A DNA stretch of 64,000 nucleotides, from NCBI GenBank assembly GCA_024679065.1, contig JAGIQG010000019.1:27404001-27468000 (forward strand), given 5' to 3'. The notes under the pieces were generated by a model that saw only the letters and a list, made by a program, of their open reading frames with translations, was not told where the DNA came from and searched no databases. This DNA comes from Sphyrna mokarran. Taxonomy: Eukaryota. The translations under genes and the position numbers were made by a program. Below, one piece after another: positions 1,521 to 53,945 of the stretch; positions within the stretch are counted from its first letter, which is position 1; every line of letters starts with the position of its first letter.

Positions 1521-1601
1521 AAGGCTCACACAAAATTACACAGAGTTTTATGATATCATTACATAACGTGCTGAGTAAGTGAATCAATTATATAGTTATA
1601 C

Positions 1602-1709
1602 CTGATCAGCAGCTTCATAATCCACTGAGCTTACTGTAGAAATGGCACCCACCGTATCAATATCAAACAGTGTAAGAATACCCGATGTGGAGAGTGAGAG
1701 AATTGTATA
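1602..1709 (-). CDS. Exon 25 (108 nt; cassette A3, EC10)
   Basis: YTILSLSTSGILTLFDIDTVGAISTVSSVDYEAADQ; ttttacag| ... |gtataa. Confidence 0.9.
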
Positions 1710-4700
1710 CTGTAAAACATTGTTTTAAAAAGAACACACACACTGTTGTGAAAATGCGATGGTTATTGTTTCAAATAATCAAAATGTCATCAATTTGATG
1801 ACATTTATCTTTTGCATTAATAAGTATCAATCAAAGCAAATTGCATGCATCAGTCAACAATCAGTTTGATATTATTGCAAAAGTAAATGCAGTTAAAATA
1901 CATCTGACCCTGAGGGGACTTGACAGAATGAATGCTGACAATCTGCTTCCTATTGTGGGAGAGACTAGCACAAGGGAAACAGTTTAAAAATAAGGGATAT
2001 TCCATATCAGACAGAGATGAGACCATAAGATATAGGAGCAGAATTAAGCAACTTGGCCCATCGAGTTTGCTCCGTCATTCAATCATAGTTGACATTTTTC
2101 TCATCCCCATTCTCCTGCCTTTTCCCCATAACCCCTGAACCCCTTATTAATCAAGAACCTATCAATCACTGTCTTAAAAACACTTAATACCTGGTCTCCA
2201 CAGCCTCCTGCAGCAAAGAGTTCCACAGATTCATCACTTCCTGGTTGAAGATTTTCCTCCTCTGTTTTAAAGGATCATCCTTTTAATCCAAGGTTGTGCC
2301 CTCTGGTTCTAATTTTTCCTACTAGTGGAAACATCCTCTCCATGTCCACTCTATCCAGGCCTCACTGTATCATATAAATTTCAAGAAGATTCTACCCTCA
2401 TTCTTCTAAACTCCAACTGTTCCTCATATGACAAGCTCTTCATTCCAAGCATCGTTCCTAGACCTTTTCCAAGACCAGCACATCATTCCTTAGATATAGG
2501 GCCCAAAACTACTCACAATACTCCAAATGGGGTGTGACCAAGCCCTTATACAGCTTCAGCAGTACAACCCTGCTCTTACATTCTAGCTGTCTCTATGTGA
2601 ATACTAACATTGTATTTGCCTTCCTAACTGCCAACTGAACCTACACATTAACCTTAACAGAATCTTGAACAAGGACTCCCAGGTCCCTTTGTACTTCTGA
2701 TTTCTTAAGCATTTCTCCATTTAGAAAATTGTCTATGCCTTCATTCCTCTTCCAAAGTAAGTAACCTCATATTTTTCCACATTGTATTCCATCTGCCACT
2801 TCTTTGCCCCACTCTTAACCTAAATCCTTCTTCAGGCCCCCTGCTTCTCAATGCTACCTGTCCTTCTATATATCTTTGTATCGTCTGCAAACATAGCAAC
2901 AGTGCCTTCAGTTCCTTCTTCCAAATCATTAATATATATTGTGAAAAGTTGTGCTCCCACACTGACCTGTGAGGCGTACCACTAGTCACTGGCTGCCCCT
3001 TTATCGCCACTCTCTGCCTTCGCCTGAAGAAGACTACAAAAGCCGAAAGCTTTCAAGTTTACTATCAAAAAAAATCGGTTGGATTTAAAATTGGTGTTGT
3101 CAGACCTCTTACTGTGTTCTGTCAGTCAGCCAATCCTCTATCTATGCCAGGATCTTACTCTTAACACCATGGCCCTTAACTTATTTAACAGTCTCTGATA
3201 CGGCACCTTGTCAAAGGCCTTCTGGAAATCTAAATAAATCACTTCCACTAGTTTTCCTTTATCTAACTTTCTTGTTACCTCCTCAAAGAACTCTAACAGA
3301 TTTGTCAGACATGACCTCCCTTGATGAAGCCATGCTGACTCAGTCCTATTTTATCATGCACTTCCAAATATTCCGCACTCTCACATTTAATAATGGACTC
3401 TAAAATCTTGTCAGTGATCAAAGTGAGGCTAACCTGCCTATAATTTCCCAACTGCTGTCTCCCTCCCTTCTCAAACAGCAATTTTACATTGCCACTTTCC
3501 AATGGTGTGGGACCCTCCTTGACTCCTGTGATTCTTAAAAGATCATCACCAATGCCTTCACAGTTTTCTCAGCTACCTCTTATAGAACCCTGGAATGTAA
3601 TCCATCCAATCCAAGTGATTTATCCACCTTCAGACCTTTCAGTTTTTCCAGAACCTTTTCTTTAATGCCACCTGTGCCCCCGATTCTCCTGGAGCTCTTG
3701 CATCCCACGGGTGTCTTCCACTATGAAGATTGATACAAAGTAACTACTCAGTTTCTCTGCCATTTCTTTGCTTCCCATTATTACATCTCCAGCCTCATTT
3801 TCCAGTAGTCGAATGTCTATTCTCGCCTCTCTCTCACCTTTTAAATATTGAAAAAGACTCTTCCTATCTTTTATATTACTAGCTAGCTTACTCTCATATT
3901 TCATGTTATTGCTTTTTTAGTTGTGCTCTGCTTGCTTTTAACAGCTTCTCAATCTCCTGCCTTCCCACTAATCCTCACCACTTTGTATGCTTTTTTGCTG
4001 CCCTTGAAATGTCTCACCCTGCACACCACCATGCGCCCCCCCACCCCTTAGCATGTTTCCTCCTCCTTGGGATGAATTTCTGTTATGCCTCCTGAATAAC
4101 CTCCCCCAGAACTCCTGCCATTGCTGTTCCACTGTCTTTCCTGACAGGCTCCCTTTCCAATCAACTCTGACCAGCTCCTCCCTCATGTCTTTGTAGTTAC
4201 TTCTATTTAATTGTAATACCGTTACATTTGATTCCAGCTTCTCCCTCTCAAACTGCAGCATAAATTCAATCATACTGTGGTCACTGCTCCTTTAGGATTC
4301 CTTCACCTTAAGTTCCCTAATCAAGTCTGCCTCATTACACATCATCAAATTCCTGTTCCCTAATAGGCTTTGTCACAAGCTACTCCAAAAAGCCATCTCT
4401 TAGACATTCCACAAATTCCTTCTCTTGGGATTCACTACTAATCTGATTTCCCCTGTCCACCTGTATATTGAAGTCCCCCATGATTATTGTAATATTGCCT
4501 TTTTTTAATTTGCTTCTTCTATTTCCCGATTTATTTTCTGCCCTAGATCCTGACTACTGCTAGGGGGTTTGTACATAACTCCCAGCAGGGTCTTTTTACC
4601 TTTGTGATTCCTTAACTCCACCTGCAGAGATTCTATGCCTTCTGATCCTCTATCAGTTCTTGCTATTGACTTAACTTCATTCTTTATTAACAATGCAACC

Positions 4701-7700
4701 CCACCTATCTGCCTGTCCTTTCAATAGGACACATACTTTGGATATTCAGATCCCAGCCCTGATCGTTTTGCAATCATGTCACTATGACGGCCACAACATC
4801 GCACTGGTCAATTTCAATGTGTGCAACAAGCTCATTTACCTTGTTTCATACACTGCACGCTTTTAGGTATAACACCTTTAGTCATGTATTGACCACCTCC
4901 CTTCTCATACTTGTCACCTTTTTTGTTCTGCCTGAGGTTGGATTCCTGCCACCTTCTACGTAATCTGTTCTATTACATGGTCTGGAAACTTTACTAACCT
5001 CTCCTAAGCTGTCAGCTCTCTTAGCGCGTTGAAAGTAGCCTACTACTTCCACTCTCTCTTTTAACTTTAATTTTCTAATTCTCCAGACGACTGAACCCTC
5101 CCCTTTTTTTCCTCTCTGTGGTGTGAGTCTGTGGAATTCTCTTCCCCAGAGAGCAGTGGAGGCAGGGATATGGAATATTTTTAAGGCAGAAGGTGATAGA
5201 TTCTTGAGTCGAAAGTTACTGAGCACAAGTGGAATGGAAAATTAAGACCACAATCAGATCAGCCATGATCAGCTTACTCCTTCTTGCAGTTTGTATGTTT
5301 AGAAAGTGTTTAAAGTTCATCCACATTTTACTTGTATTGTAGGGATCACAATATGTGACCTGCCCATGCCAGTTTCATTGGATGTTGGCAAAAGGGAAAC
5401 TCCCAGTTCATTATCATGATTATAGTGGACAAACAAATGGATTGTTCACTGATGCCTCTGCAAATTATCAACTGGTTCTGGCCTCAATAGGGCCCCAAAG
5501 AATATTGTGCAGTGAGTTGGTGCTGCAGCCAGCCTTGTATTCTTAAAGGCAATCTGTCCCTCTCAATTGCACGCCATTATGAATAAAGATGCTGGAATTT
5601 AAATGATAATGAATGGAACAGCAGGGAAGATAGAGCAACTGGATGCATGAAACAAACAGTTGCAGTATATGTTCTAATATCACACTGGATTTTCATTTTG
5701 TATTATTCAAGATCATGTCAAACAAAGAAATGAAACTCACATTTAACAATTCATTTTCAGGGTCTGTTGCTGAGACTCTATAAACAAATTCTCCAATATT
5801 ATCGGTCTCAGAGATAGTCACGTTAGGTCCTGCATGAAACAGTAGCACGAGTTAACAGGTACTAAACTGTCCAGCATTGTACTCATTCAAGCAAGGATGA
5901 ATTTTATTAGTTTTCCTGTTGTTTGTGTGTAACAAGAATGGATGGGAAATCAGTATCTTAAACTGAATATAATCACTCAGGCTGGATTTTCAGTCTCAGA
6001 GACGAGTGGATGTCAAGAAAGTTTTCACCTGATCCCACACTCCTTTGGGCAAAATTGCCAAGAAAAATGGGAATTTCTGAGGGGAATACTGATAGGGGAC
6101 CTGTCCATAACTCCATCAGGATCTTTTTACCTTTGCAATTCCTCAATTCTACCCACAGAGATTCTATGCCTCCTGATCCTATATCAATTCTTGCTATCAA
6201 TTTAACTTAATTCCTTAGGTGATACATAATGGAACTTGACTGAAAACCCGAAAATCCGTTAGACAGTTTAAAAAAACTAAGCCCCAGAGAAAACACGGTG
6301 TGATTGACAGTGGTAGCTCTCTGATCTCTTCATCAATTGTGCTTTGTTAATTTACATAAGATAATGGGCAGAATTCTCCAGCTATTTAAGCCCCTGCTGC
6401 CAGTGAACGGAGAATTTGGCCTCAGCTCAATAAAGAGACCATGTCTATGGTTACTGATGACACAAAGACAGGAGAGAAAGTTATGAAAATGGCATAGGGG
6501 TCTACAAAGGGATACAGATAGTGAAAAAGAGCAAAACTTCAGCAGAAGGAGTATAATGCGGGAAAATGTGAACTTTTCCATTAAATTGTAGAGAAATTGC
6601 ATAATTCTGTGGTACAGAGGAATCTGGTATCTTGGTGCTTGTTTCACAAATGGTTAAGAAATAGGTAATTGGGAAGGTAAATGGAATGTTGTTCATTTTA
6701 AGAGCAGTAGAATGTAAGAGTAGAGAAGTTTTGCTACAGTTGTACAAGACAACATCTAGAGTACCATGTACATTTTCAGCCTCCTTCAGTGCAGAGAAGC
6801 TGGTTCCTGGGATGAAGAGGTTGTTGGATGAGGAAAGGTTTACAGATTGGAATTTAGAAGAATGAGATCTCATTGGACGCTGAAAGAATGTATCTCCTTG
6901 CGGGAGAGTCTTAAAAGAAGTTTTAATAAGAATGGATCTCCCACTTAAAATGGAGATAAGGAGAAATAGGCTCCAGCAGCTGAATGACCTAGTACTAATC
7001 TGTTTTGATGTGGTTGCATCAATACTCATTGCTGTTCAGGAACATCTAAAACTGCAGAAACTGCAGCAGGAAATAGTTGGGGACAGCTATTGGCAATCAT
7101 AGGAGATCTAAGTTTGGTTTGGTATCATGTAGCTGTTAGTGTGAGAGTGGGCTAGGTGGCAGGAGGATGCAGTGTTTGTGGATGGGAACAGAGAGATTGC
7201 AGCAGAAGATCTTTGAGAGATCAAGAAGAAAAATTCTTGCTCCTCTTGGTCTGCAGTCGGTGCTGGTAAAGTTCTTATCTGCTCAGTCTGACTGTCCCCC
7301 CTGGTTCTTTAGCTGATGCGTAACTGAGTTCTGGAGATCTAAATGAGCAGTCATCAATGTTTAATTTATTATTGCACATTCGTATAAAATTGTACCTAGT
7401 TGATCAAGTGGCATGAGAGTCCTGTGATTATATTCTTGACTCGAGTTCCTTTAGAGTGTACACTATTGCTAAAACATTAAACCTGTATGTTTGCCCTAAT
7501 GCGCTGTCACCATTTTCTGAAAGATGTCTCTTTGACATGGTTGGATTTCTTTTATTCTTTCACAGGAATTTGGCCTTGCTTGCTAGGCAAGCATTTGTTG
7601 CCTAATTGCCCCGAAAAGGATTCTGAGTTTTATTGCAGTAGAACATGGAGATCACAAAAATGAAACGTCATCATTCCTTTCTGCCAATGCTATGTTCTGG

Positions 7701-10700
7701 AATAATGCTCCCACATTTCCACCCTACTAATGGAAAGACCTGCATGCTTTTGGATTCATAACTGGAGCATGAGAAATGAAATTATGGTTGTGATTTTCCA
7801 ATCTTCATTGGGAGTCCAATTACTTCTGCTGGGTGTGCCCTAAACCTCATTCGGTGGGGCCAGAAAATCCTAGCCTGTGAGCAGGAAGTATTTGATTCCA
7901 AAGAAGAATTCAACTCATTGCAATCACTATTCAATATAGATAAAGATTAATCATTTAAATATCTTCACCCGCTATAAATTCAGCATCGCACACAGGATCC
8001 TCATCGACGGGAGTCAATGATACATTCAGGTTGCATGTGGCTGTGTTACCTCCCTGGTCTGTAACCACTACATTTAATGTGTAGAATTTGACAACAGACA
8101 CATCCTCATAGTCCAATACCAATGTATTGGTAATTATTACAGTGTCTCCAACTGAAAGATAAGAGATACATCTGTTTAATCAAATATAGCTCAGGTGAAT
8201 AAAATGCATTGCGTATACATCACCACAGACAAAGAAATGTAAGGAACTACAAAGAGGGCAAGAAATGAGAAAAGCTCCAAGCTGGTGTGACACACATCCA
8301 AATGTATACAACACTGAATTAAAATGAAACGTTTATTTATTAGTCAGAGGTAGGCTTACATTAACACTATAATGAAGTTACCATGAGAATCCCCTAGTCA
8401 CCACACTCCAGCATCTGTTTGGGTCAATGCAACTAACCAGCATGTTTTCAAAATGTGGGAACAAAACCAGAGCAAACTCACACTGACACAGGGAGAATAT
8501 GCAAACTCCACACAGAAAGTGACCTGAACCAGGAATTGAACATGGGTCCCTGACACTGTAGGGCAGCAGTACTAACCACTACTTACAACAATAAGCATAG
8601 CAACACACAGAGAGATGGAGCCATATATTCACAGAGATCGTGTCACAACACACAAAACAGAAATTATGCACATGTACAATCACTGAAATGTAGGGTGGAA
8701 TTTTACAAGATTTTTTTTCTAAGTATCCAGCTGGTGTGAAAAGGGAAGAGTTTCTGATTCATTTCTCGGATGAGTTCTCATGGCCAATCTTGTGCACTCA
8801 GTCTTTGAAAATATGGGCTGGACCATTGCTAGCCATGAGAGGCAGTGGGTGGAGCCAATTCATCAGAGAGCTAGCAGCTCAGATCAGACCTACAAACTAC
8901 ACATGTGCAGGAAAAGCAGAATAAAACAGCTCTATTGACAGATCACCCCTGGGACAGATACAGCTTCCACCTGCATCCTCCATGGCCATCAGTGACTCTT
9001 GCCACCCCCCCCCCACCCCCCCCCCCCCCCCCCCGGTTATTACTGACCTGCTTATTCCCCACAGCCCCTTCGTGCATCCCCTTACACAAGCACTCCTCAG
9101 CACTCCTGGTGGCCCCAATGGCTGACTGACATGTCCCTCTCCTTCCCATTTCCCCTATCATCATAGAGGTAGGGATCCCAACTCCGCCTCCATCAGCTGC
9201 AAATGCTGACTTGGTCTCTTCACTGGTGACAAGACAAACTGCATTAAATTCACTGAAATGCTCTAATGGGTGAGTGAGTACCCAAACTGCCTGCAGCTGA
9301 ACTGTCCTAACAGGGCACAGCTCTATAAAAACTCCAAGGATGGATAGACAGGCCAAGTTACTGGAGATGGTGGAGACAAGGTGGGACAACCTGTTCTGCC
9401 CAGCAAGAAGCTGTACCAGAGAAAGAGACTGAAATGCAACCAGAGCCCTGGCCAGGAGAACTGGAAAGCAATGCTGAAAAAGACTAAATGACCTAATCTG
9501 GTCAGCAAGGATGAATGTTTAACCTCATCTAGTCACAAATGTCTCCAGTGGCGGTTTGGAAGGATCCCATGGTGTAAAGGTTTAAGACCATTATGTAAGA
9601 AAACATCACATCCACAGATCCAAAAGCAGAGCAAAGAGAAACACAACACAGGACAAAGAAACACCAGAAGGCACAGAGAGAAAACAGAGTAAGAAACTTA
9701 ACATCCACATAATGTCACAGATACAAATATCATACACCAGACTTCACAATGGCCAATGTCCTGGGGGAATCGTTATAGTTAATTGAGTTCATACCTTGGT
9801 TAATTTCAAACGAAGGTTCATTTACTGCAAAACTAAACGTCAGGTTCTCATTGTCATCACCATCTGAGGCAGATAAAGTTATTAGTGTTGTCCCAGCAGC
9901 CACTTCCTCATTCAGGGTTAAGCTAGTCAATGGACAGGAACTGAAAATGAGACAAATATTCCTGTTTAATAAACCGAAGAAACATCAGTCGGAATGAGAA
10001 CTGATCTTGTCTGCCAACAGGGGAATAATATCTGACGTACCTGATGACTGGAACTTCATCATTGACATCAGTAATTGTGATCGTTACTGTGCCTGTGCAA
10101 GCGAGGCTTGGAGAGCCAGTGTCATTAACAGATACCACAGCATAGAAAAGCTGAAGGGAAAGAACAAAACTTTCAATTAAATCTGTCAATGAAATGTAGA
10201 TCCCAGTCTCTAAAATGACTGGAATAAAATCTGTGCTGAAGATATTCTCATTGTTCAGTAGTAATAATGTATCTCATACCATGTCACCATTTTCAAAATT
10301 CAAATCAGCTGCTGTGGTGATTAGACCCAAATTGTCCACGTCAAATAGTGCGCTGGTATTGGTGGAGGAGCTCGACAGGATGGAATACTGAAAGAAATCA
10401 GGAAGTTTTATTTCTGTCAGTGTTATATACAATTTATTTAGGTAAACATTTAGATAAACTTCATTTTCTGTCTTTTTTTTCCCATCTCAATTGTTGAGAT
10501 TAAACATAAGGAATGGGTATTGAGGTTTCTTCTGGATTCGGACTTGGATCTTACTATTGAGTGTCCTACCGGGCTCTCTGTGATAACCTCCAAAACTCCA
10601 CAATGAAAGACCATTGATTAAATCTTTGGGCACAATCCTACTGGTTGTTCACTCCTCGCTCCTACTACGGCAAGGTCGGAAAATCTGGGCACTCAGCCAA

Positions 10701-34700: not shown

Positions 34701-37700
34701 AAGGGCTGTGGATATTGTCTACATGAACTTTAGTAAGGCATTTGACAAGGTCCCTCATGGCAGGCTGGTGCAAAAGATTCAATCTCATGGGGTGAACTAG
34801 CTAGAGGGAAGCAGAATTGGCTTTGCCATGGAAGACAAAGGATAGCAGTGGAAGGGTGTTTTTTTCTGAATGGAGATCTGTAACTAATGGTATTCACATT
34901 AAGAAGTCTCACAGCACCAGGTTAAAATCCGACAGGTTTATTTGTAGCAAATGCCACAACAAATAAAGCTGTTGGACTTTAACCTGATGTCGTGAGACTA
35001 CTTACTGTGTTTATCCCAGTCCAATGCCAGTATCTCCACATCGTGAATAGTAGTGTTCCTCAGGGATCAGTGCTGGGACCTCTGCTGTTTGCATTTAAAA
35101 TGAAGAAAACGTAGTTGGTCTAATTAGCACGTTTGCGGATGATACTAAGATTGGCAGAGTTACAGATAGTGATGAAGATTGTCAGAACTTACAGCAGGAT
35201 ATCGATGGGCTGAAAAATTGGACAGAGAAATGGCAGATGGAATTTAATTCAGACAAATTCGGATGGGAGCTATAAAGTAAATGGCAGAACCATCAGGAAT
35301 ATAGATACACAGAGGGAACTGGAAGCACAGGTCCACAGGTCCTTCAAAGTGGCAGCACAGGTGGAAAAGTTGATGAAGAAAGCAGATGGCATGTTTGCTT
35401 TCACCAAAGAGGGCATCGAGTACAAAAGTTGACAATTATGTTACAGTTATATAAAACATTGGTTAGGCCATATTTGGAATACTATCTCCAAGTCTGGTCA
35501 TCAGGATGTGGAGGTTTTGGAGATTGTACAGGAAAAGTTTACCAGGATGTTGCCTGGTAAACAGGATATTAGCTATGTGGAGAGATTGAATAAATGGGGA
35601 TTGCTCTCCTTGGAAAGCTAGAGGCTAAGGGACAATCTGATAGAAGCTTATAAAATAATGAGAGGTAGGGATAGGGTGAACAGTTGGAAGCTTTTTCCCA
35701 GGCAAAAATGACAATTACAATGGGGCACGAGTTCAAGATAAGGTGGAGAAAGGTTCAGTGATGGTGTGCAGGGGAAATTTTTTAAACAGGATGGTGGGGG
35801 CCTGGAATACACTGCCAAGAGAGGTGGCTGAGGCAGATACATTAGTGATATTTAAGAGTTATCTGGATAGGCACATAAACAGATGGGGAAATCAAGGGAT
35901 ATTAGTCGTTGGGCTGGATAGGACAAAATAGTCAACGTGGGCTTGGAGAACTGAAGGGAATGTTCCTGTACTGTCTGTACCATTCTTTGTTCTACAGTTA
36001 GTCAGAATACAGAACATTGCTTTAAAATTCAACCTGGTCGACATGGATTTATATCAAACCTTCACAGTCTCTCTTCAATTCCATAAGCATTAGTTATTGT
36101 AAGATGGTGGGCCAGTCTTTATCTACTTCTAGTCTTCAGATCTTCAGTATTCAGACAGCCTTACTATACTGTGGCATCTGGTATCTTAGCAACTGTGTCT
36201 CTAAATTAATGCCTGACTCTTATATGGCGCAGTTCATTTTGTTCACGATGAAACATAATGCTTCCTTTCTTTTGGTGCATTTGACTTGAACATTGAAAGT
36301 TTAGATTAGGGAATGTTTGCTGATAAGTGTGAACAAGTCTCTATTAACCCAAAGAATCATCTGCATGATGGTGGAACGGACAGATCGGCAAATGTGGAGC
36401 CAGGCTTCTACCCATTTCATTGCATACAGATTTATGTTTAAATTGCATATGGATTTATAGTTAAAGATTTGGATAGAAATTAGAAAAATCATATTGCAGA
36501 TCTGTTGACATAAGATTAAAGGACTTGAATTTTCTGTGAGCTGGGTGATGATTAGCCAACTTTTCAGGACAGTTTCAGAACAAGTGATAATAGTCATCCA
36601 ATTGATCAGCATTCAACGACCTTACTTCAGTCTATTTTCCAATTCATTGATCTTTTTCACCCAAATATCTTTTCTGTCTCTATCACAGGAGGTATTTGAA
36701 ACTAATAAACAATTACACAATGAGTTTTATGATGCCATTACATATAAAGAGCTGAGGAAGTGAATAGATTGTCATAGTTGTACCTGATCGGTAGCTTCAT
36801 AATCCACTGAGCTTATTGTAGAAATGGCACCCACTGTATCAATATCAAACAGAGTAAGAATACCCAATGTGGAGAGTGAGAGAATCGTATACTGTAAAAC
36901 ATAGTTTTTCAAAGAATATTGTTGTAAAAGATGCAATGGTACTGTTTTGAATGACTTGAATGTCATACATTTGGTGTAAAAATATGACACTTTGTTCATT
37001 AATAAATATCAAAATCAGTAAGTTATATGCATCAGTCAACAGTCAAATTGATTTCATTGCCAAAGTTAATGAGGTTCTAAAAAGTTGTTATAAGATCATC
37101 CACAATATATATTTGTTGAGGATTGTGATTTATGAATCAGTTCCACTGAAACATAGGAAGAGGAATAGGCTATTCAGCCCATTGAATATGTTCCACCATT
37201 CAATAAGATCATGGCTGATCATTGACTTCAATGCCTTTTACACATCTCATCCCCATAACCCTTTATGTTACTGTTAATCAGAAATCTCTGCTTTAAACAT
37301 TCTCAATGATTGAACTTCAACAGCCCTCTGGAGTAGAGAATTCCAAAGATTCACTACTCCTTGTGCAATAAAGATAATTTCCATTAACCGTTCTGCACCT
37401 GCATCTTAACCTTGAGTGCGTTATGGACAAGAACATGCAGGTCCCTTTATACATCTACACTTTTTATGTCTTACCATTTCAGAAATAGTTTGCATATCTG
37501 TTCCTTCTGGCAAAGTGGATTGTCTCATATTTTCCACATTATATTCCATCTGCCATGTTTTTGTCCATTCACTAAGTCTGCCCAAATCCTCTTGTAGCCA
37601 GTTTACAATTTCTTCACAGCACAGATTCCCACCTAGCTTTGTATCATCTATGAATTCGGAAACATTACATTTGGTCCCCACATCCAAATCATTGATACAT

Positions 37701-40700
37701 ATTGTGAACAAATGGAGTCCAAGTACTGATCCTTGTGGTACCCCACTAGCCATAGCCTGCCACCACGAGAATGACTTGTTTATTCCTACGCTCTGCTTTC
37801 TGCCTGATATCCAATCCTTAATCCACACCAGTGTATTGCCTCAGCACATATACGTTTATTTTGCTTAACAACCTCCTGTAGAGGACTTTATCAAAAACCT
37901 TCTGAAAATCCAAATATAGAACAAAGAACAAAACAGCACGGGAAACAGGCCCTTCGGCCCAATGAACCCACGCCGCCACCCCGATGTTCCCACCTCTACC
38001 CGCGATCCCTGTCCACGTTTATAGATCTATGGATTAAAAACCAAATTTGAGACAATTTAGGGAGAATTTGTTTTGCCAATTAGCCTAAGTACTGATCATT
38101 ACTTTCTGGCCATCCATGATGACAGGATTCTCCAGTCCCGCTGCAGTGAATGCAGATTTGGCTGAGCACCAAATTTTCCATTCTCATTTGCAGAGGTGGC
38201 AGGGCATGAATAGTCGGAAAATTGTGGCTACCATCTCCATTGCCTCTCCTTTGTCAATGTTAGTAACATCCTCAAATAACTCAAACAAGTTCGCAAACAT
38301 CATTTCCCATTCGTAAATCCATGTTGATTCTGCCCAATCAGATCCTGATTGTCCAATTGTCCATTTATCACAACATTAACAATGGATTCTAACATTTCCC
38401 CAAATATTGATACAAGGCTTACAGGACAGGGGATTGAGGTTCGAATCCCACCTCCGCAGATAGTGGGATTTAAATTCAACAAAAGTCTGGAGTTAGAAGC
38501 TTAACAATGACCATGAAACCTTGTCAATTGTTGTCAAACCTATCTAATTTCCTAATGTTCTTTAGGCAAGGAACCTGGTCTGGCCTACAAGTGACTCCAT
38601 GTACACAGCAATTTGCTTGACTTTTAAATGCCCCCTGAAATGTTCCCAGCAAGCCACTCAGTTCAAGGACAGTTAGGGATGGATCATGACTACTGCTCCA
38701 GCCAGTGATGCCCACATCCCACACCAGTCTTTCTCGTGCTTTTTTATCTCTCCAGTTCTGCTTTCACTCTCTCACACTCCGGTATACTCCTGACTTTACT
38801 CTCAGTCTTGCTCTTTCTTGCGCTCTTTTTTTCTCCCCATCTTTGTTCTCACTCGATTTCTTTTTTGTGCTCTTTTATCCTCCCTACCTGTATCACTCCC
38901 TCTCACACTCTTCTATCCTCCCTGTGCAGCTCACTGGCTCGGAGGTTATGAGCGACTGTAACACTAAGCCAGCAGCTGGTCGCCACTGGAAAGATTGGTG
39001 AGGCTGGAAAGTCACTGATCTCAGGCAGGGAAAGGGGTGCAATAGACGGTCTGTAATCCTGGGTGTGATGGACAGGGGCAGTTTCAAGGGTAACAGTGCT
39101 TGTGGTGGGGGGGGGGGGGGGGGCGGAGTTTGGTGGTGGTTGGTGGACAGAGTGGTGATGATGATATCTGGGAGTTGAGGAGGGCAGTGCTGGGAATTAG
39201 ATGATCCCTGGGGTGCAGGGGGAGCTCCTCAATTTCCAGATGATATGGAAAGGAAAGGTGGGATTTTACAGCCTCGTCCAAGCGAGACCAGAAATTTCTG
39301 TCCAAGGTCAACAGATTTTCTATTTTCTACCCCTGATCTGCTCCGATTCTGTGGCAGCCAGGTGGTAGAATTCCAGCAGAAATCTAACAGTAAAAACTTA
39401 GTTCAGCAGTTGATTGCATGAAATTAGCAGTTGAAGTAGATGTTCTAATATCACACTGAATTTTCATTCTGTTGTTCCAAAACCACATCAAACAAAAAAA
39501 AGCCACTCACATTTAACAAAGCGCCTTCAGGATCTGATGCTGAGAATCGATAAACAAATTCTCCAATATTATTGGTCTCAGAGATCGTTACATTAGGTTC
39601 TGCATGAAACAACAGCAAGAGTTAACAGGTACTAAACTGCCCAGCATTGTACTCTTTCAAACAAGGTTGACTTTTGTTATTTTTCCTGCTGTTTGTGTGC
39701 ATTAGAAGTGGATGAGAAATCAGCACCTTGATCTCAGGGCTGGATTCTCATTGTTAAAGTGGGAGTATTGCATGCAGTTCTGGTCACCTCACTACCAGAA
39801 GGACGTGGAAGCTTTGGAGAGAGCGCAAAGAAGGTTATTTCCTGATCTCGAGGGTATTGGCTATGAGCAGAGGTTGAATAAACTAGGATTGTTTTCACTG
39901 GAAAGACAGAGGTTGAAGAGAGACCGGATAGAGGTCTGCAACATTATGAGGCATTCACAAGCTGGATATTCAGAGGCTTTTTCCAAAGCTGGAAGTGTCA
40001 ATTACAAGGGGTCACAGATTCAAGGTGAGAGGAGGAAAGTTTAAGGGAAATCTCCAAGGGAAAATTTTCACACAGAGAGTGGTGGGTGTCTGGAAAGCAA
40101 TGCCAGAAAATGTGATGGAAGCAAGTTTGAAAGGCATCTGGATGGGTACATGAATATGGAGGAAGTAGTAGGATATGGACTAAGTAAGGGCAGAAGATTT
40201 TTAGTTAAGGCATCATGATTGGTGAAGGGCTGAAGGGCCTGTTCCTGTGCTGTACTGTTCTTTGTCTTTGTTCTAGACCTACTAACTTCTATATGACTAA
40301 TCATTGCACAGTACTCCAGTTTTCCCAATCTTTGGGCATTTAGTTTTCATTTGGGAGAATCCTGGCCTCTATCTCTAAACTTCTGCTTTGATGAAAGGTC
40401 ATCCAGACTCAAAATGTTGGCTCTATTCTCTCTTCCTTCCTAGATGCTGTCAGACTAGCTAAGATTTTCCAGCATTTTCTGTTTTTGTTTCAGATTCCAT
40501 CTTCTGCAGTATTTTGCTTTTATCTCCACATTTCATGTTATTGTTAATCAGGAATTTATCTCACTCTGCTTTAAACATACTCAATAACTGAGATTCCACA
40601 GCCCTCTGGTGCAGAGAATTCCAAAGACTCGTAACCCCACTGTGTAAAGAAATGTTTTTCCTTGCCTCAATCCTAAGTAGCATTCCCCACACTTTGAAAT

Positions 40701-43700
40701 TATGCCCCATTGTTCTAGACTCCCCAACCAAGGGAAATATCTTACCTGCATCAACCTTTCATTATTTTGTAGGCTTCAATGAGATCATCTCTCATTCTTC
40801 GAAACTCTAGAGAATACAAGCCCGTTTCCCCAATCTGTCTTCATAAGATAGTCTGCAGAACAAGTCTGGTGACCCTTCATTGCACTCTCTCTATGGAAAT
40901 AAATCCTAAGGTAAGGGGATGTAGTTGGACTTTCATAATGTTCCCTTGTACCATTAACAACTAGCCATATATTCCAGTAATGTATGCAGAGAAGAAATGA
41001 TTCAATTGTTAATTATTAAACATCTTTGGGCAAACAGAAGATGCTTGAATTGGATCTGTCTATTTCCAGCAGTCTAGTTATTCTCTTTCTGTTTCTTGAT
41101 GGCTGTAATAGGTTTCTCAGGAGCTGCGTATTAGAAAATATCTTTTAATACAGGAGTCTCAATGGGGCACAGACTACCCATAATAAGATACATATAATGT
41201 CTTTATATTTATGTATAATATCAGCCTAAGTCAAATTCCTGTCATCCCTACATGTCTCTCCAACAGGCCCTATACAGCAACTAATGGCTAATGACTCTCA
41301 AAGAACTGGAAGACTGCTTTCGGGCTGAAGATGCTTAAACTGTGCATTAAATCCAACTGCACTGTTTTAGTTTTCATTACTGCCTGTAATATAAGAACAC
41401 TGACTTGTATTTATGTAATGCCTTCAATGTGATAAAACATCCCAAAGTGCTTTATGATATTAGTTCATGGCCAAAAGCTTGGCTGAATTAGAATAAAAGG
41501 AGCATCTTAAAGGAGAAAAATAGAGGGAGAGAGGTTTAGCCAGTGCATCGAGATAATAGTTTTAACATAGAAAGGTATTTCAAATCACTCTGCAAACATG
41601 CTCTTCCCCTAAAACAGACACACCAGCTTAGGGTGGGTCACCTTGCAACACTAAGAATCTAGATGTTTAGCAGAGATTATTAATAAGCTTTATTACACAA
41701 ACCTAAGCAAGCCAAAGTTCAGTGTTTTCTGCATCGTGCTTTACCTTCTCCATTAACGACTGAAGTACATTCAGGAGGTTCATCAACATCGGTGAGTGAT
41801 ACCGTCAGAGTTTGGGAGGCACTATATGAGCCATTTGCAGCTTGCACCACAAGTAGGTATGATTTAGGTATATGGTCCTCATAGTTAAAATCTACAACAG
41901 TTTTAATAATTCCAGTTGCTGAAACAAAATGCATAAAACAAGTTTTTACTCAGCAATATTCTGCGAACAGAAAAAAACCACGAGAGTACATTTCCCTTTG
42001 ACCTAAACCCAGGGATTCAAGGGCCTCCTGAGATATTGACCCTGTAGATACGTGTAAGGTCCAAACCCAGCATTGTTATAAAAATGTGGTGGCAGAGGCA
42101 GTTCGAAGATGACAAATGATCCAGCTCACCAGCTACGTTCTGTCTCTACCAGCATGATCTTCGGGTGTCAGACGTTTTAGCCACTGTCCTCCAGCCGTCA
42201 GCAGATGTTGACCAGTGAAGTTGTACCTATAGAGCTGTATATAGAGATTCCTCTTTGCTGAAATCTGGGCTTGCACTGATTATGACAAGGCTATGCCTCT
42301 GACCCAAGACTGGGACTTTCTTTGTTCTCTCCTATGACAAACACATACCGAGGAAAACCAAGCCTAGTATTTGTTTTAAAGATATCCAAAACAGCGACCG
42401 ATCTCTTATGTAAAAGCAGAAGGTGCTGGAAATCCAAACCAATTTCTACATTCTACTATCTGATTGCTCAATGTGTCACAGCTCATCAGCAAATTGGCTG
42501 GATTGCTGTGATACGGTAATAGCCTCAAACAGCCTTAATCAAACATGGACATTTCCTCACAACATTTAAGAAGTATTTGATGAGCACTCAAAACACCATA
42601 CAGGCTACAGACTAAATGCTGGAAAATGGGATTAGAATAGCTTGGTGTTGAACGGCCACTGCAGATCTGATGGGTCAAATGGCCTCTTTCTGTGCAATAA
42701 AGCTCTATGACACTATGGACTAAAGAACTGAACTTCAGTAGTGAGATGGGAGTGACTGCCAAGGCAGCATTTGATCAGCTATGGCATCAAAGAGCCCTCG
42801 TAAAATCGGAATCATTGGGAATTAACGGGAAAGCTCTCTACATGTCTGAGTCATGCCAAACACAAAGGAAGTTGGTTGTGGTGGTTAGAGATCAATCATC
42901 ACAGTTCTGGAAAATCACTGCAGAGTTCCTCAGCGAGTGTCCCAGGCACGACAATCTTCAGTTGCTTCATCAACGACATTCCTTCTGTCATAAGGTAGAA
43001 GTAGGGATCTTTGCTGATGACTACACAATGTTCAGCACCATTTGTGATGGCCCCTCAAATACCTGAAGCTGTCCATGTCTTTGTACAGTAAGATCTGGAC
43101 AACATTCAGGTTTGGGATAATAAACAGCAAAGTACAATTCGGACCCCACAACCACCTGAATGGACGAATCACACCCTATGATTTCAGGGGTGGGTGTTAA
43201 CTAGAGCAGCAAGGTTTAAAATGGCAGGTTAAGTGTCAAATCAGTGTTAGAAGCAGAGTGATATCATAATCTGTCCACTTTGTATCTTTTCAGTGTGCAC
43301 ATAATCCTTGTCCTAATGCCCACAACAACATGACATCAACATGAGCCACAGTGGCCAGCAGTGACACTAACTTAATTTTTCACATCATCTGTTACCCATA
43401 ACACTGAAGCCACTGCAATTCCAGAGGCTTTAACTGTATGGAGCAATGATATTTTTTGATATAAATTTATCAGATTTTGTTGCATATTTGTCCTTTACAA
43501 AGGAAAGTACAAGGGGAAAAGAAAACTTCAGAAAGCTGTATAATGAAGTAAGTGTGCACTTAACTGGGAAACACTGGACAATCACTCCAGTCTTTTCCAG
43601 TTTATGACATACTCCTTTGACCTTTGCTTGAATTGTGCTGATAGAATCCTTACCATTTTCAATATCAAAATTTGAATTGCTTCCTAGAAAGGTGAATTCT

Positions 43701-44413
43701 GTAGCATCAAAGTCATCACTTGTTGTTGCAACTACTGTGCCAATGGGTACTTCCTCAGGCAGTGTGGCTGGATTTGATGAGAATGAAACATTTGCTTCAC
43801 TGATTTTCCAAATTCCTGTAAAACGGCAAGGAGCAGAAAGATTTGTTTTAAGAAAATAGGATTCAGTATTGGAAACATTATTGAATTAAATCCTATTTTT
43901 CAATCAATGCCCTACATAAACATCTTAATACTTCTTCAAATAGAAATACCATCATCAAATGTTCTTAAAGAGGTGTTTTTGTGTTTGAGTCAAATATTGC
44001 GAAGACGCACTTACATTAATCATAAAATCCCAACAATACAGAGAAACGCCATTCGGCCCATCAAGCTTCCACTGACAACAATCCCATATGGGCCCTTCTC
44101 CTGTAATCCCACATATTTACTCCAGTAAACCCCCCAATCAAACTAACCCACACACTTTTGGAGTGTGGAAGAAAACCAGAGCAACCCACAGGCACAGGGA
44201 GAACTTGAAATTCCATACAGACAGTCTCCCAAGATGAGTATTGAACTCAGATTCCTCATGTTGTGAGACAGCAGTGCTAACCTCTGTACCACCATTAGAA
44301 TAAGTAGTAATAAACAAATATTTATTAAATGTCTTGTCTGTAACATTTCCATAAAATGGGCTTGGAAAATACATACCTTGAAATAGAAGTATTGCTGTGA
44401 TCAAAATATTCAT
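1602..44413 (-). CDS. Multi-exon cadherin-repeat gene, 5' part (signal peptide + EC1 to part of EC10; continues beyond the left edge). Cadherin-related (CDHR3/CDHR4-like or Fat-like) protein, orthology not established
   Basis: 25 exons with GT-AG boundaries and matching phases join into one stop-free ORF of 3114 nt. Cadherin motifs present: PEE/DEE/ISE, A-x-D-x-D, LDYE, DVNDE.P. No transmembrane exon in the window. Confidence 0.93.
2021..5100 (-). mobile_element. CR1-type LINE, degenerate ORF2 (endonuclease + RT), nested in an older CR1 3' remnant (1900-2020 / 5105-5300, +)
   Basis: ORF fragments VELRNHKGKKTLLGVMYKPPSS, GNYRQVSLT, SQHGFIKG; CR1 3' tail at 2021. Confidence 0.9.
3022..3117 (+). 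mobile_element. Short Penelope-like 3'/pLTR fragment inserted in CR1
   Basis: cctgaaga...cgaaagc followed by gttggattt..tggtgttgtcagac..cttactgtg; same family as 34895 and 51890. Confidence 0.55.
5741..5829 (-). CDS. Exon 24 (89 nt; cassette A3, EC10)
   Basis: GPNVTISETDNIGEFVYRVSATDPENELLN; catgcag| ... |gtgagt. Confidence 0.9.
6430..7000 (+). mobile_element. Decayed CR1 LINE RT 3' fragment
   Basis: Resembles the CR1 RT C-terminus (ctacagttgtacaagac..., CR1-type tail). Confidence 0.65.
7969..8151 (-). CDS. Exon 23 (183 nt; cassette B2, end of EC9)
   Basis: Paralog of 25772-25954, same peptide; GT-AG. Confidence 0.92.
8330..8582 (-). mobile_element. HE1-like tRNA-derived V-SINE
   Basis: A-box (agtggttagtact), B-box-like gttcaattcc, V-domain remnant. 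Confidence 0.8.
8693..9590 (+). mobile_element. Harbinger/PIF DNA transposon relic (Myb/SANT-like ORF remnant); paralog of 26232-27610
   Basis: Left TIR gggtggaatttta; decayed AKLLEMVETRWDNLF...RTGKQC.KRLNDL. Confidence 0.65.
9795..9940 (-). CDS. Exon 22 (146 nt; cassette B2, EC9)
   Basis: SSCPLTSLTLNEEVAAGTTLITLSASDGDDNENLTFSFAVNEPSFEINQ; GT-AG. Confidence 0.92.
10041..10150 (-). CDS. Exon 21 (110 nt; cassette B2, end of EC8)
   Basis: LFYAVVSVNDTGSPSLACTGTVTITITDVNDEVPVI; GT-AG. Confidence 0.92.
10280..10387 (-). CDS. Exon 20 (108 nt; cassette B2, EC8)
   Basis: Paralog of 28315-28422; same peptide YSILSSSSTNTSALFDVDNLGLITTAADLNFENGDM; GT-AG. Confidence 0.9.
11936..12024 (-). CDS. Exon 19 (89 nt; cassette B2, EC8)
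   Basis: tgttacag| ... |gtaagt; GPAVSIAEDIAIGTSVYKITASNPDGNALQ. Confidence 0.9.
13120..14283 (+). mobile_element. CR1 LINE RT 3' fragment
   Basis: LDPLLFVIYINDLE...ISKFAVDTKIGG...WAEQWQMEFN. Confidence 0.9.
14431..14702 (-). mobile_element. Short 5'-truncated young CR1 copy
   Basis: RGHSFKLRGG.FRTDVRGRFFTQRVVRVWNALP...; 3' tail (ttctatg)n. Confidence 0.88.
14703..16490 (-). mobile_element. Young 5'-truncated CR1 (HER1-like) LINE, RT with a few frameshifts
   Basis: KSPGPDGIYPR, SQHGFVKGRSCLTNL, YMDFSNAFDKV, SKFADD, LYKTLVRPHLEYC. Confidence 0.95.
16798..16980 (-). CDS. Exon 18 (183 nt; cassette A2, end of EC7)
   Basis: cacttacag| ... |gtgagt; VGNGAWIITNSILDYENASAITDYQLNIVVTDLASHVTSCNLNVSLNPVSETPVCDPQFVA. 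Confidence 0.92.
17045..18075 (-). mobile_element. CR1 LINE 3' end with a long 3' UTR containing a V-SINE-derived body
   Basis: ORF2 C-terminus 17575-18066, then ~530 nt UTR with V-domain and (ttctttg)n tail. Confidence 0.9.
18593..18738 (-). CDS. Exon 17 (146 nt; cassette A2, EC7)
   Basis: attttctag| ... |gtaagg; SQCPSSPVSVDEELPAGTIVAFLSASDNDTTDNLTFSFGIPETDFQIQQ. Confidence 0.88.
19053..19162 (-). CDS. Exon 16 (110 nt; cassette A2, end of EC6)
   Basis: ctctgcag| ... |gtctgt; LQQYHAMVSVSDPAGNTCTGIVTIHIADVNDEVPVI. Confidence 0.9.
20380..21305 (+). mobile_element. CR1 LINE RT 3' fragment
   Basis: SKFADD-like motif, FFTQRVVNVWNS, tail ttctagtttctatgtttc. Confidence 0.88.
21865..23250 (+). mobile_element. 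Degenerate CR1-clade LINE relic
   Basis: ALDIKPASDQVW, MVVVLSGQQS; paralog of 1-1520. Confidence 0.8.
23325..23432 (-). CDS. Exon 15 (108 nt; cassette A2, EC6)
   Basis: ttttacag| ... |gtatga; YTILSLSTSGILTLFDIDTVGAISTVSSVDYEATDQ. Confidence 0.9.
24192..24280 (-). CDS. Exon 14 (89 nt; cassette A2, EC6)
   Basis: tcattcag| ... |gtgagt; GPNVTISETDNIGEFVYRVSATDPENELLN. Confidence 0.9.
24955..25290 (-). mobile_element. HE1-like V-SINE with CR1-type tail
   Basis: tRNA head, V-domain and tail; absent from the paralogous intron near 7520. Confidence 0.88.
25772..25954 (-). CDS. Exon 13 (183 nt; cassette B1, end of EC5)
   Basis: tctttcag| ... |gtgaag; VGDTVIITNTLVLDYEDVSVVKFYTLNVVVTDQGGNTATCNLNVSLTPVDEDPVCDAEFIA. 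Confidence 0.92.
26232..27610 (+). mobile_element. Harbinger/PIF DNA transposon relic with TIRs and Myb/SANT-like ORF remnant
   Basis: TIRs gggcagaatttta ... taaaattccaccc; DLAKLLEVVEARWETLFP...VSAKVLGERTGK. Confidence 0.7.
27829..27974 (-). CDS. Exon 12 (146 nt; cassette B1, EC5)
   Basis: cattttcag| ... |gtatga; SSCPLTSLTLNEEVAAGTTLITLSASDGDDNENLTFSFAVNEPSFEINQ. Confidence 0.92.
28075..28184 (-). CDS. Exon 11 (110 nt; cassette B1, end of EC4)
   Basis: cccttcag| ... |gtacgt; LFYAVISVNDTGSPSLACTGTVTITITDVNDEVPVI. Confidence 0.92.
28315..28422 (-). CDS. Exon 10 (108 nt; cassette B1, EC4)
   Basis: tctttcag| ... |gtatga; YSILSSSSTNTSALFDVDNLGLITTAADLNFENGDM. Confidence 0.9.
28446..28788 (-). 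mobile_element. HE1-like V-SINE
   Basis: Full tRNA head, V-domain and CR1-type tail; absent from the paralogous position ~10408. Confidence 0.9.
29864..29952 (-). CDS. Exon 9 (89 nt; cassette B1, EC4)
   Basis: ggtgcag| ... |gtaagt; GPSVTISEDIVNGASVYKITASDPDGNDLQ. Confidence 0.9.
31579..31761 (-). CDS. Exon 8 (183 nt; cassette A1, end of EC3)
   Basis: actttcag| ... |gtgagt; VGNNAWILTNAVLDYENTSATTDYQLNIIVTDLASQVASCNLNVSLNNVNEAPACDPQFEA. Confidence 0.92.
32359..32504 (-). CDS. Exon 7 (146 nt; cassette A1, EC3)
   Basis: attttctag| ... |gtattg; SECPLSPVSVDEELPAGTIVAFLTAYDNDTTDTLTFSFGIPETDFQIQQ. Confidence 0.88.
32745..33240 (+). mobile_element. L2-clade LINE 3' remnant
   Basis: Decayed L.DLHWL...DFKIL..FK motif and tail gaagcacctggggc..ttaaaggc..tataaatg. 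Confidence 0.7.
34022..34131 (-). CDS. Exon 6 (110 nt; cassette A1, end of EC2)
   Basis: ctctgcag| ... |gtttgt; LKQYHAVVSVADPAGNTCTGLVTIYIADVNDEVPVI. Confidence 0.9.
34440..35995 (+). mobile_element. CR1 LINE RT fragment interrupted by a Penelope-like insert
   Basis: NYRPVSLT, FSKAFDKV and FADDTK motifs recognisable. Confidence 0.88.
34895..35045. mobile_element. Penelope-like inverted-repeat element
   Basis: ~50-bp imperfect inverted arms within 34895-35009. Confidence 0.6.
36784..36891 (-). CDS. Exon 5 (108 nt; cassette A1, EC2)
   Basis: ttttacag| ... |gtacaa; YTILSLSTLGILTLFDIDTVGAISTISSVDYEATDQ. Confidence 0.9.
37150..38430 (-). mobile_element. Decayed CR1 LINE carrying a nested 3'-tail copy (37917-38089) of the V-SINE-tailed CR1 family
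   Basis: SGVPQGSVLG..FTICINDLD; nested segment nearly identical to 17045-17216. Confidence 0.85.
39511..39599 (-). CDS. Exon 4 (89 nt; cassette A1, EC2)
   Basis: catgcag| ... |gtgagt; EPNVTISETNNIGEFVYRFSASDPEGALLN. Confidence 0.9.
39755..40275 (+). mobile_element. CR1 LINE 3' fragment
   Basis: EYCMQFWSPHYQKDVEALER; 3' gaagggcctgttcctgtgctg tail. Confidence 0.85.
40385..40525 (+). mobile_element. Penelope-like element 3' remnant (related copies at ~10745, ~28965, ~50350)
   Basis: tgatgaaaggtcatccagactcaaaatgttgg...gatgctgtcagac...ccagcattttctgttttt. Confidence 0.6.
41745..41918 (-). CDS. Exon 3 (174 nt; second half of EC1)
   Basis: gtttcag| ... |gtaaag; ATGIIKTVVDFNYEDHIPKSYLLVVQAANGSYSASQTLTVSLTDVDEPPECTSVVNGE. 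Confidence 0.92.
43654..43815 (-). CDS. Exon 2 (162 nt; end of signal peptide + first half of EC1)
   Basis: ttttacag| ... |gtaagg; GIWKISEANVSFSSNPATLPEEVPIGTVVATTSDDFDATEFTFLGSNSNFDIEN. Confidence 0.88.
44020..44295 (-). mobile_element. HE1-like V-SINE
   Basis: V-domain remnant and CR1-type tail. Confidence 0.8.
44377..44413 (-). CDS. Cadherin gene coding exon 1 (signal peptide start, MNILITAILLFQ-G)
   Basis: AAAATG start, hydrophobic stretch, donor CAAG|gtatgt in phase 1, which joins exon 2 to give MNILITAILLFQGIWKISEA, a plausible signal peptide. Confidence 0.75.
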
Positions 44414-52780: not shown

Positions 52781-53739
52781 ATCATAATTCTCTAATCAAA
52801 CCTAAATTTGATTTGGACAGCTTAACAGTGATTTATACCAATGTCAACCCAAAACTCCCACACAGGTACGTAACTAGTCTGTTAGAGGCATGTCTGTGTT
52901 AGTAAATTAGAATCTAACCTTCGTCTTATGTTTATTTTGAGGTCTAGCTGGTGAGATGAAAGCCTGTTTGGTCCACTGGCTGTAAAGTGCTCATGGGGTC
53001 AGTTTTTAGTATAACATACTCAGACTGGGTGAGAGGCAGGGTAACTTCTCCACCTGCCTAATGATATTACCAGCAAGGAATATTTTTCTGAGGATATCTC
53101 ATTTATATCTGAGTTGTAAGCTGCTAATAGTACAGCCAGCATGACTTTTCTTGGAACATTGATCCAGCAAATTCCATCAGCAATTAGAATCAGTGTAGTG
53201 TGGACTATTTGCACTCTGAAGAGGAAACTCAGGTATCTGAAAGCTGGGGGGAGATCTTCAGTGTAGGCTGGTTGATGATGGCAGGGGACAGACTGCACAA
53301 ATTAGCTAATGGTAAGTTTCTCCACATGGATGATCTAGTTTGTGACAGTCTCTCTGCAAAAAGGCACTGCTTCTCTGAAATGTTCAGACACGTAATTCTG
53401 TATTGGGAGACTAAGGATTTCTTAAATCCTCCTGGCTCCTCCTCCTCATCTCTCTGTTGCTGCTGGTGACCTTCCCTCTATTCCTATTCTACTTCCCAGC
53501 TGTCATTGAGTCAGGATGGAATGGCCAGACGATTATCCATTTGGAGAAAGAGAATGCTGTCAGTATTCCCCTGAAACTTCCTGACTCGCTGTCCAGCAGT
53601 GACACTGCTGATACGTACATGAGGTGCACACTCAGAGCTGGGGCAGGAATTGTTGATGGGCAACCGGCAAGCGGGAGTTGCCCAGAGTTTAAGTGCAGGA
53701 TGTCTTCCCATCCAGCAGTGATTGAGAGCCTGTCCATTT

Positions 53740-53945
53740 GCTGGGCAGGGTAGTCTATCTGTCTGCTGTGGGAGGTGGTAGTCTGCCAGTCTGCTGGGTG
53801 AACAGTCTGTCTGTCTGCTGGGCAAGGCAGTCTGCCTATCTGCTGAGTGAACAGTCTGTCTGTCTGTGGGCAGGGCAGTCTGTCTGTCTGCTGGACAGGT
53901 CAGCCTCCCTGTCTGCTGGATGAACAGCCTGTCTGTCTGCTGAGT
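53740..53945. repeat. ~24-bp minisatellite (ctgggcagggcagtctgtctgtctg-like), about 8 degenerate units
   Basis: Visible tandem repetition. Confidence 0.8.

Follow-up and report, generated by a model that had tools for sequence, protein, structure and literature searches.

A length-expanded cadherin gene of the shark Sphyrna mokarran and its probable place in the Cdhr17 clade

The gene and its cassette array

The stretch analysed here, hereafter the window, comprises 64,000 nucleotides (nt) of the Sphyrna mokarran genome (assembly GCA_024679065.1, contig JAGIQG010000019.1, here C760; C760:27404001-27468000), and it was examined together with 300 kb to its left and 100 kb to its right. On its minus strand lies the first part of a gene that encodes extracellular cadherin (EC) domains in a tandem array of five-exon cassettes; it is very probably a shark member of the Cdhr17 clade (CDHR3/4/17 subfamily) with a length-expanded array, an assignment that we hold, jointly with the genomic mechanism described below, to be nearly secure. 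The full gene model has 78 exons over 153,346 nt and a coding sequence of 10,005 nt, equivalent to 3,334 amino acids (aa), with zero internal stops. Splice-site scans and translated searches gave GT-AG borders for 77 of 77 introns across the whole model. The window holds exons 1-25, and the remaining 53 lie to its left, ending with a stop codon at C760:27295068. Because every intron is canonical and no stop interrupts the frame, the exon array in the window is not a product of chance.

Exon sizes of 89, 108, 110, 146 and 183 nt recur in one frame and with canonical splice sites over 22 exons (39599 to 1602; unprefixed positions are those of the window), amounting to 4.4 cassettes of 636 nt or 212 codons, as the original prediction had described. 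The cassette starts given there, 39599, 24280 and 5829 for type A and 29952 and 12024 for type B, are all correct. Within a cassette, exons 1-3 encode one EC domain and exons 4-5 the next; the fifth exon measures 186-189 nt in later B copies, and 12 of the 13 cassettes have a length that is a multiple of three and phase 1 at both ends. The array had been expected to continue past the left edge of the window, and leftward extension indeed brought the total to 13 cassettes, followed by three further EC domains, a Thr-rich stalk, one transmembrane (TM) segment (residues 3263-3281) and a short tail of 49 residues. From EC1 onward the cassettes read A B A B A B B B B B C D E; the proposed alternation of A and B therefore holds for the first six and fails further left, where a run of B (B B B B B) precedes three older cassettes.

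The exons of A and B share 46-66% DNA identity; between the second A copy and the third, the figure is 97.8-100%. Genome searches recovered three copies of the first A exon and seven B cores, every one inside this gene. Compared with the B core at 27829..28422, five others show 93-97% identity over ~630-660 nt; in the remaining copy a longer intron divides the match into two (97% and 85%). Membership of the cadherin superfamily is supported by Pfam Cadherin domains found 22 times in P0007, a Scyliorhinus torazame protein, and 12 times in P0001; single-exon Pfam Cadherin matches were weak (three of the four window exons tried). Counting one domain, plus two per cassette, plus three, yields 22 for P0007 and 8 for the Mustelus counterpart of the neighbouring gene described below, equal to their Pfam Cadherin counts, and since the rule reproduces both homologues, 13 cassettes correspond to 30 EC domains here.

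The prediction that a 10-exon unit had been copied together with its introns was likewise confirmed. The introns are homologous along a diagonal that joins 6-14,200 to 22,080-35,900, at an offset of ~18-22 kb, which indicates that the unit was duplicated as genomic DNA. Its register is exons 10-19 versus exons 20-29, beginning at the 108-nt exon of B and not at a cassette start (Table 1). A broken partial copy of a 183-type exon lies within an intron at C760 ~27372580-27372680, probably the remnant of an incomplete duplication.

Table 1. Features of the cadherin gene within the window
Feature	Position in window	Strand	Details
Exon 1, start codon (ATG, 44413) and signal peptide	44377..44413	-	37 nt coding; agrees with the start of S. 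torazame protein P0007
Exon 2, EC1 first half	43654..43815	-	162 nt
Exon 3, EC1 second half	41745..41918	-	174 nt
Cassette 1, type A, EC2-3	31579..39599	-	exons 39599-39511, 36891-36784, 34131-34022, 32504-32359, 31761-31579
Cassette 2, type B, EC4-5	25772..29952	-	exons 29952-29864, 28422-28315, 28184-28075, 27974-27829, 25954-25772
Cassette 3, type A, EC6-7	16798..24280	-	exons 24280-24192, 23432-23325, 19162-19053, 18738-18593, 16980-16798
Cassette 4, type B, EC8-9	7969..12024	-	exons 12024-11936, 10387-10280, 10150-10041, 9940-9795, 8151-7969
Cassette 5, type A, EC10-11	1602..5829	-	two exons in window: 5829-5741, 1709-1602
10-exon higher-order unit, copy 1	11936..28422	-	exons 10-19
10-exon higher-order unit, copy 2	from 10387, off left window edge	-	exons 20-29
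Homogenised B core	27829..28422	-	108-nt exon, 130-nt intron, 110-nt exon, 100-nt intron, 146-nt exon
Homogenised B core, second copy in window	9795..10387	-	
SINE-like (short interspersed nuclear element) high-copy repeat	24913..25298	.	within the intron of a B-to-A junction; left out of an organism F contig

Homogenisation of the copies

Homogenisation, more than recent origin, accounts for how closely the exons agree. Across the duplicated unit, exons 10-19 and 20-29 differ at 21 of 1,272 nt (1.7%), whereas the aligned introns differ at 1,581 of 9,775 (16.2%). Four-fold degenerate sites of the unit show 5 differences in 198, a proportion far below the 16.2% of introns (binomial p = 5e-10), and those of the older A pair show 13 in 89. 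Among the seven B copies, the three central exons and the two short introns are nearly identical, and the outer exons and long introns lie 18-30% apart, with rates of 0.015, 0.013 and 0.045 in the three core exons versus 0.29 and 0.18 in the outer two. Around isolated exons, the flanking mismatch is 2-10% inside 30 nt and reaches the background level by 60-100 nt, identity decaying over 30-100 nt of intron. The 110-nt exon is 94.6-98.9% identical within species versus 83.8-88.8% between them, with 5-13 columns fixed per species pair, and in a cassette tree the B copies group mostly by species (6 of 7 for the window gene, 4 of 5 for the catshark and 3 of 3 for the bamboo shark) and cassettes C, D and E by position.

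Given an exon divergence of 1.7% against 16% in introns, exon-centred gene conversion at the DNA level offers the simplest reading of these sequences, with synonymous rates compared between copies within this gene. RNA-templated conversion was rejected, as homogenisation also includes the short introns of the B core and identity reaches into the intron flanks. Selection on synonymous sites is unlikely to be the sole cause, since exons of these classes show normal divergence when older copies or different species are compared.

Family identity, neighbouring genes and history of the array

A query with the C-terminal exon returned five proteins among 41 candidates, all from sharks, the closest being that of Mustelus (99% on this exon, 94.5% over 403 aa). 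They carry the names cadherin-23-like, CDHR4-like, CDHR3-like and hypothetical/Protocadherin Fat 4, and the mis-annotation that had been foreseen is thereby documented, with 'cadherin-23-like' applied in Mustelus and Chiloscyllium plagiosum and 'Protocadherin Fat 4' in UniRef for Scyliorhinus torazame and C. punctatum. These protein searches covered orthologues up to 2,000 aa, and P0007 was found through a cluster look-up. A profile search retrieved a vertebrate-wide set of ~1,000-aa proteins from bichir, amphibians, a lizard, marsupials, placentals and, as fragments, coelacanth, including 'Cadherin related family member 17' of mouse and rat. A 38-row tree was built from the final three EC domains, TM segment and tail; in it a 23-row group, with a support of 98 in the SH-like approximate likelihood-ratio test (SH-aLRT), united the long shark genes with the neighbour genes of sharks and the Cdhr17 set of bony vertebrates, and in a 22-row tree the group containing mouse Cdhr17 comprised 13 rows (SH-aLRT 93). 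Identity to bony-vertebrate Cdhr17 over the last three EC domains and TM segment is 45-50%. The cadherin-related identity originally proposed is thus retained and refined to the Cdhr17 clade rather than CDHR3/CDHR4, the five-exon cassette being the ancestral EC2-EC3 unit and not a novelty. The length-expanded form, described beforehand as lineage-specific, was confined to sharks among the sequences found.

Other cadherin families were considered and set aside. An approximately unbiased (AU) test rejected joining the long shark genes to CDHR4 (p = 0.00016), the genuine CDHR4 lies on contig C882, and C760 carries no IP6K gene. Joining them to CDHR3 was likewise rejected (AU p = 0.024, three teleost rows), and a CDHR3-like exon was located on contig C1437. 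Fat and CELSR cadherins do not fit a protein with one TM segment whose orthologues, where the C-terminus is included, show no EGF or laminin-G domain in Pfam scans. Cadherin-23 and Dachsous are opposed by the 49-residue tail and by an identity of ~30% to long cadherins (not included in the tree) versus 41-54% to the Cdhr17 set. Classical cadherins are opposed by orthologues that gave no PF01049 or classical-type Pfam match, and clustered protocadherins by an ectodomain spread over more than 70 exons rather than one large exon. A protein atlas query with the TM segment and tail returned matches that were all below 0.9, including those to the classical-cadherin family, and these serve as leads only; a search of solved structures gave generic cadherin matches only. 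The CDHR4 orthologue at C882:79.69-79.74 Mb stands near IP6K and a kringle gene, and its exon sizes match the C-terminal exons of the window gene. The exon skeleton is common to CDHR4, the 8-EC neighbour and this gene wherever sizes could be resolved.

The neighbour is a paralogue on the plus strand of C760, from 27226385 to ~27290660, to the left of the window. It is arranged tail-to-tail with the long gene at a distance of 4.4 kb, looks intact, and encodes EC1, two cassettes and three EC domains, that is 8 EC in the ancestral Cdhr17 layout. Mustelus and skate proteins that match it carry the name CDHR3-like. The order along C760 is a multi-kringle gene (27.12-27.15 Mb), the neighbour, the long gene, a Sema gene (27.75), CD36-family sequence (27.82-27.84) and two G-alpha genes (27.89-28.04). 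Taken as Pfam families, these genes follow the order of the HGF-SEMA3C-CD36-GNAT3-GNAI1 block. In humans the clade is presumably pseudogenised, CDHR17P being the pseudogene that we take to represent it.

Cassette counts trace how the array may have grown. A cassette profile found one weak copy in most CDHR3/4 proteins, two in bony-vertebrate Cdhr17 and in the shark neighbour, three to four in lamprey models and, among the long shark genes, nine in the S. torazame model, ordered A B B B B B C D E, as against 13 in the present gene, the models of Mustelus and Chiloscyllium being truncated N-terminally. Among the cassettes, D groups with cassette 1 of the 8-EC proteins (98) and E falls, less well resolved, among the cassette-2 rows, and C, A and B together with three lamprey cassettes derive from the cassette-1 side, which argues that the five-exon unit is old and was re-amplified, probably separately in lamprey and in sharks. 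An intron stretch specific to B-to-A junctions is present in organisms B, D and F at ~88-92% identity, and one organism F contig extends from within the last B exon almost to the A exon, stopping 75 nt before it. The A-B repeat is accordingly not confined to this assembly. The lack of an A-B repeat in the catshark model could be a real absence or an assembly effect. The tail motif of the family, given below, also ends five long cadherins of 2,200-3,800 aa (P0016, P0027, P0050, P0065 and P0155, one of them from a limpet), so long forms may also be old in the family. Among the lamprey entries P0166, P0169 and P0168 are a 3-4-cassette protein and 1-cassette proteins, and one database model fuses two. 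Rodent Cdhr17 models (P0219, P0300 and other rodent rows of alignment A2) miss the first part of cassette 2, two exons, which leaves a half domain.

The predicted protein and its possible function

Domains EC2-21 are predicted to be strongly acidic, with 0.7% Lys+Arg, 14.1% Asp+Glu, 22% Ser+Thr and 2.3 N-glycan sequons per 100 aa; Lys+Arg amounts to 5-9% in 8-EC relatives and 1.2-1.4% in the young repeats of catshark and bamboo shark. Even-numbered domains carry an invariant Cys pair, one residue near each end (27 of 27 aligned rows). An extra pair in odd-numbered domains is complete in 20 of 49 cassettes, wholly lacking in 29 and never single; it marks all 20 young cassettes, from four shark species, and none of the 29 older ones, although the pair has one origin, so that the cassettes are not independent events. 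Judging from the spacing and co-occurrence of these residues, a disulfide likely ties the first strand of each young domain to its last. All 13 even-to-odd linkers read D/N-x-N-D-E, with near-canonical calcium sites, and the odd-to-even linkers mostly lack the first Asp and have reduced sites, EC7-8 and EC11-12 being the weakest.

Mouse Cdhr17 (NP_001365537.1; hamster member Gm28710) belongs to the same clade and shares the T-rich stalk and the TM-proximal motif, and cassettes D and E match its two; it differs in having 8 EC rather than 30 and ~7% Lys/Arg rather than 0.7%, and the young near-identical repeats and the odd-domain Cys pair are features of the shark gene. CDHR3 and CDHR4 share the exon skeleton where it is resolvable, the lack of a beta-catenin-binding domain and a tail motif that is recognisable but altered and shortened in this gene, but they have six EC domains and one cassette, show 28-35% C-terminal identity and are separate genes on other contigs. 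Cadherin-23, the tip-link cadherin with 27 EC domains, also has a long single-pass ectodomain spread over many exons and supplies a working analogy for a long tether, yet it gave generic cadherin-level matches only, its repeats diverged anciently, and its tail is a long scaffold-binding one as against 49 residues here. Fat and Dachsous, with about 27-34 EC domains, share the long ectodomain and are an origin of the wrong database names; unlike them, the present gene has no EGF or laminin-G domain (Pfam, orthologues), small exons in a strict five-exon cycle and a short tail. Duplication of multi-exon blocks is also familiar from LPA kringle IV-2, the long homologous repeats of CR1 and the Olduvai triplets of NBPF. 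Nebulin super-repeats resemble this gene in that a multi-exon, multi-domain block was duplicated as a unit, albeit in a different domain family, with four exons per seven domains according to a repeat survey; the survey lists cadherins with repeats whose domains all show low mutual similarity, contrary to what we observe here (PMC1553488).

The reading that we favour, and consider somewhat better supported than its alternatives taken together, is that the gene encodes a 30-domain acidic single-pass stalk built from 13 copies of the ancestral cassette, probably by unequal crossing-over and later conversion, and that this stalk likely acts as an epithelial tether or spacer. Cdhr17 would have been duplicated into the tail-to-tail pair, with one copy staying at 8 EC and the other expanding. 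Any five consecutive array exons sum to a multiple of three with the same start and end phase, so gain or loss is frame-safe, and mispairing between cassettes would add or remove two domains with the frame kept. The probable order of events is cassette C, then A and B, then the run of B, then whole A-B units. Exons similar enough to pair may subsequently have been overwritten by DNA-level conversion extending ~30-100 nt into the introns. At the protein level, the stalk may consist of calcium-stiffened two-domain units linked by weaker joints, with N-glycans and negative charge on the young domains making the repeats repel each other and not adhere. At ~4.5 nm per EC domain, the single-copy tip (EC1 and the first cassette) could be held ~130-140 nm off the membrane. 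The functional part of this proposal, a stalk holding a conserved tip as an apical epithelial tether or spacer, is drawn from the anatomy above and from analogy, and we give it somewhat less than an even chance. An apical location on ciliated epithelium, in particular, would follow the example of CDHR3, described as a six-EC protein found mainly apically on ciliated airway cells and without a known role of its own (PMC6301718).

Several points weigh against these proposals. The trees were quick searches from which human CDHR3 and any identified Cdhr18 were left out, and the groups for the AU tests were picked after the first tree had been viewed. Within the Cdhr17 clade these trees do not establish the two genes of sharks as sisters. 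The flanking genes on C760 were named by Pfam family and not by orthology, and the mouse site with which they are compared, the HGF-SEMA3C-CD36-GNAT3-GNAI1 block, is the position that we take mouse Cdhr17 to occupy. The non-vertebrate relative P0016 has 2.2% Lys/Arg, and since some non-vertebrate relatives are nearly as poor, low Lys/Arg may go with length in general. The tail motif FDG...DP.SG..Y.FN..TG..W is intact in orthologues of catsharks, bamboo sharks and Heptranchias; here, in the last two exons (C760:27295068-27295292), the Asp of FDG is replaced by Ala and a stop stands where other sharks have Trp, damage that makes any tether reliant on firm cytoplasmic anchorage less likely and is in keeping with relaxed selection. 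The 3,334-aa product and its full-length splicing are a predicted model, for which neither transcript nor protein was found: none of 24 sequence runs was listed as containing RNA, and four smaller runs behaved as genomic DNA, with no splice joints among the matches listed (15 of ~1,090). None of seven strict RFX X-box matches in 464 kb lies near the promoter of the gene, and the best is 15 kb upstream of the neighbour, an uninformative result. As a separate observation, the Mustelus model also lacks the last two, tail-motif exons.

Among the alternatives, the same gene and history could have produced a brush with mucin-like, anti-adhesive or microbe-binding properties on the gill, skin or gut, a glycocalyx or decoy with no partner at its tip. 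A net charge of -13 per 100 aa, the Ser+Thr content noted above, 63 sequons and the decayed tail motif are all compatible with such a surface, and rhinovirus C uses CDHR3 as a receptor (PMC6301718). We nevertheless regard this as unlikely, as calcium motifs are retained at every even-to-odd linker, EC1 and the membrane-proximal part are single-copy and conserved (the 94.5% identity to Mustelus), and the repeats bear no sign of diversifying change, with one non-synonymous versus six synonymous differences between the second and third A cassettes. Rather less probable still is nearly neutral growth driven by recombination, whereby a redundant duplicate drifts in length through cheap in-frame cassettes and length itself is unselected. 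The intact-looking 8-EC paralogue 4.4 kb away, the variation in cassette number among sharks (13 here, nine in one catshark model), the decaying tail and the broken partial exon copy in one intron all speak for such drift, but the frame is open across 78 exons and the ratio of non-synonymous to synonymous change (pN/pS) is ~0.4 between the first two A cassettes. The retention of the new Cys pair and low Lys/Arg in 20 of 20 young cassettes from four shark species also speaks against neutral growth, although not decisively, because conversion can preserve such traits passively.

That the cassettes form a pool for alternative splicing, from which shorter proteins of varied length or A/B content are made, appears very improbable. 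The interchangeable phases of 12 of the 13 cassettes would permit it and orthologue models in databases are often partial, but such models are expected when reads cannot be placed on near-identical exons; moreover, all splice sites are canonical, and near-identical copies offer little diversity to choose among. An assembly artefact or pseudogene, at which the 98-100% identity of many exons and the early end of the tail might hint, can practically be dismissed. The introns of the copies differ by at least 16% with different insertions, and exactly seven B blocks occur genome-wide, all in this gene, so that the repeats are genuine. Contigs of run X1, possibly the source sample itself, span 23700-26292, each piece showing 0-3 differences; the B-to-A junction intron recurs in the three other organisms, and orthologous repeats occur in four named shark species. 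Separately, in runs X1 and X11 the contig depth over 25774-26076 and 24355-25888 was 2-3x the depth of B-type contigs elsewhere, which hints weakly at collapsed near-identical copies, depth not being copy number.

Returning to the preferred tether or spacer, a bolder version of it seems to us speculative and rather doubtful, though worth stating: the protein might be a link cadherin longer than cadherin-23, with disulfide-clamped, charge-repelling domains and recurring calcium-poor hinges, forming filaments between cilia, microvilli or sensory processes. Its length might vary in two-domain steps between species, and perhaps between individuals, with an independent extension in lamprey, and the Cdhr17 clade would then constitute a molecular-ruler series. 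The growth of CDH23, Fat and Dachsous is so ancient that its steps can no longer be traced, whereas here they are still readable as copies of single cassettes, a higher-order copy of A-B and homogenisation centred on exons. With homologues of 1, 2, 3-4, 9 and 13 cassettes, the purpose of cadherin length becomes directly testable. The analysis also provides the correct name for shark proteins that databases list as Fat 4, cadherin-23 or CDHR3/4-like, and brings into view a barely studied Cdhr17 cadherin clade that extends across vertebrates. No main-text mention of Cdhr17, Gm28710 or CDHR17P was found, supplements and subscription papers on cadherin evolution being outside the scope of the search, and no paper was found on CDHR4 in sharks or on CDHR3/CDHR4 phylogeny within the cadherin superfamily; an earlier mention of the gene, for example in a gene table, is possible.

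Two minor features of the window lie outside the coding array. A minisatellite with a 24/49-nt period occupies 53727-53946, upstream of the gene, and self-comparison otherwise revealed only dispersed repeats between 45,000 and 64,000. At 14433-14969, a 267-nt tandem pair ends an interspersed repeat, of which several young copies are present in the introns of the gene.

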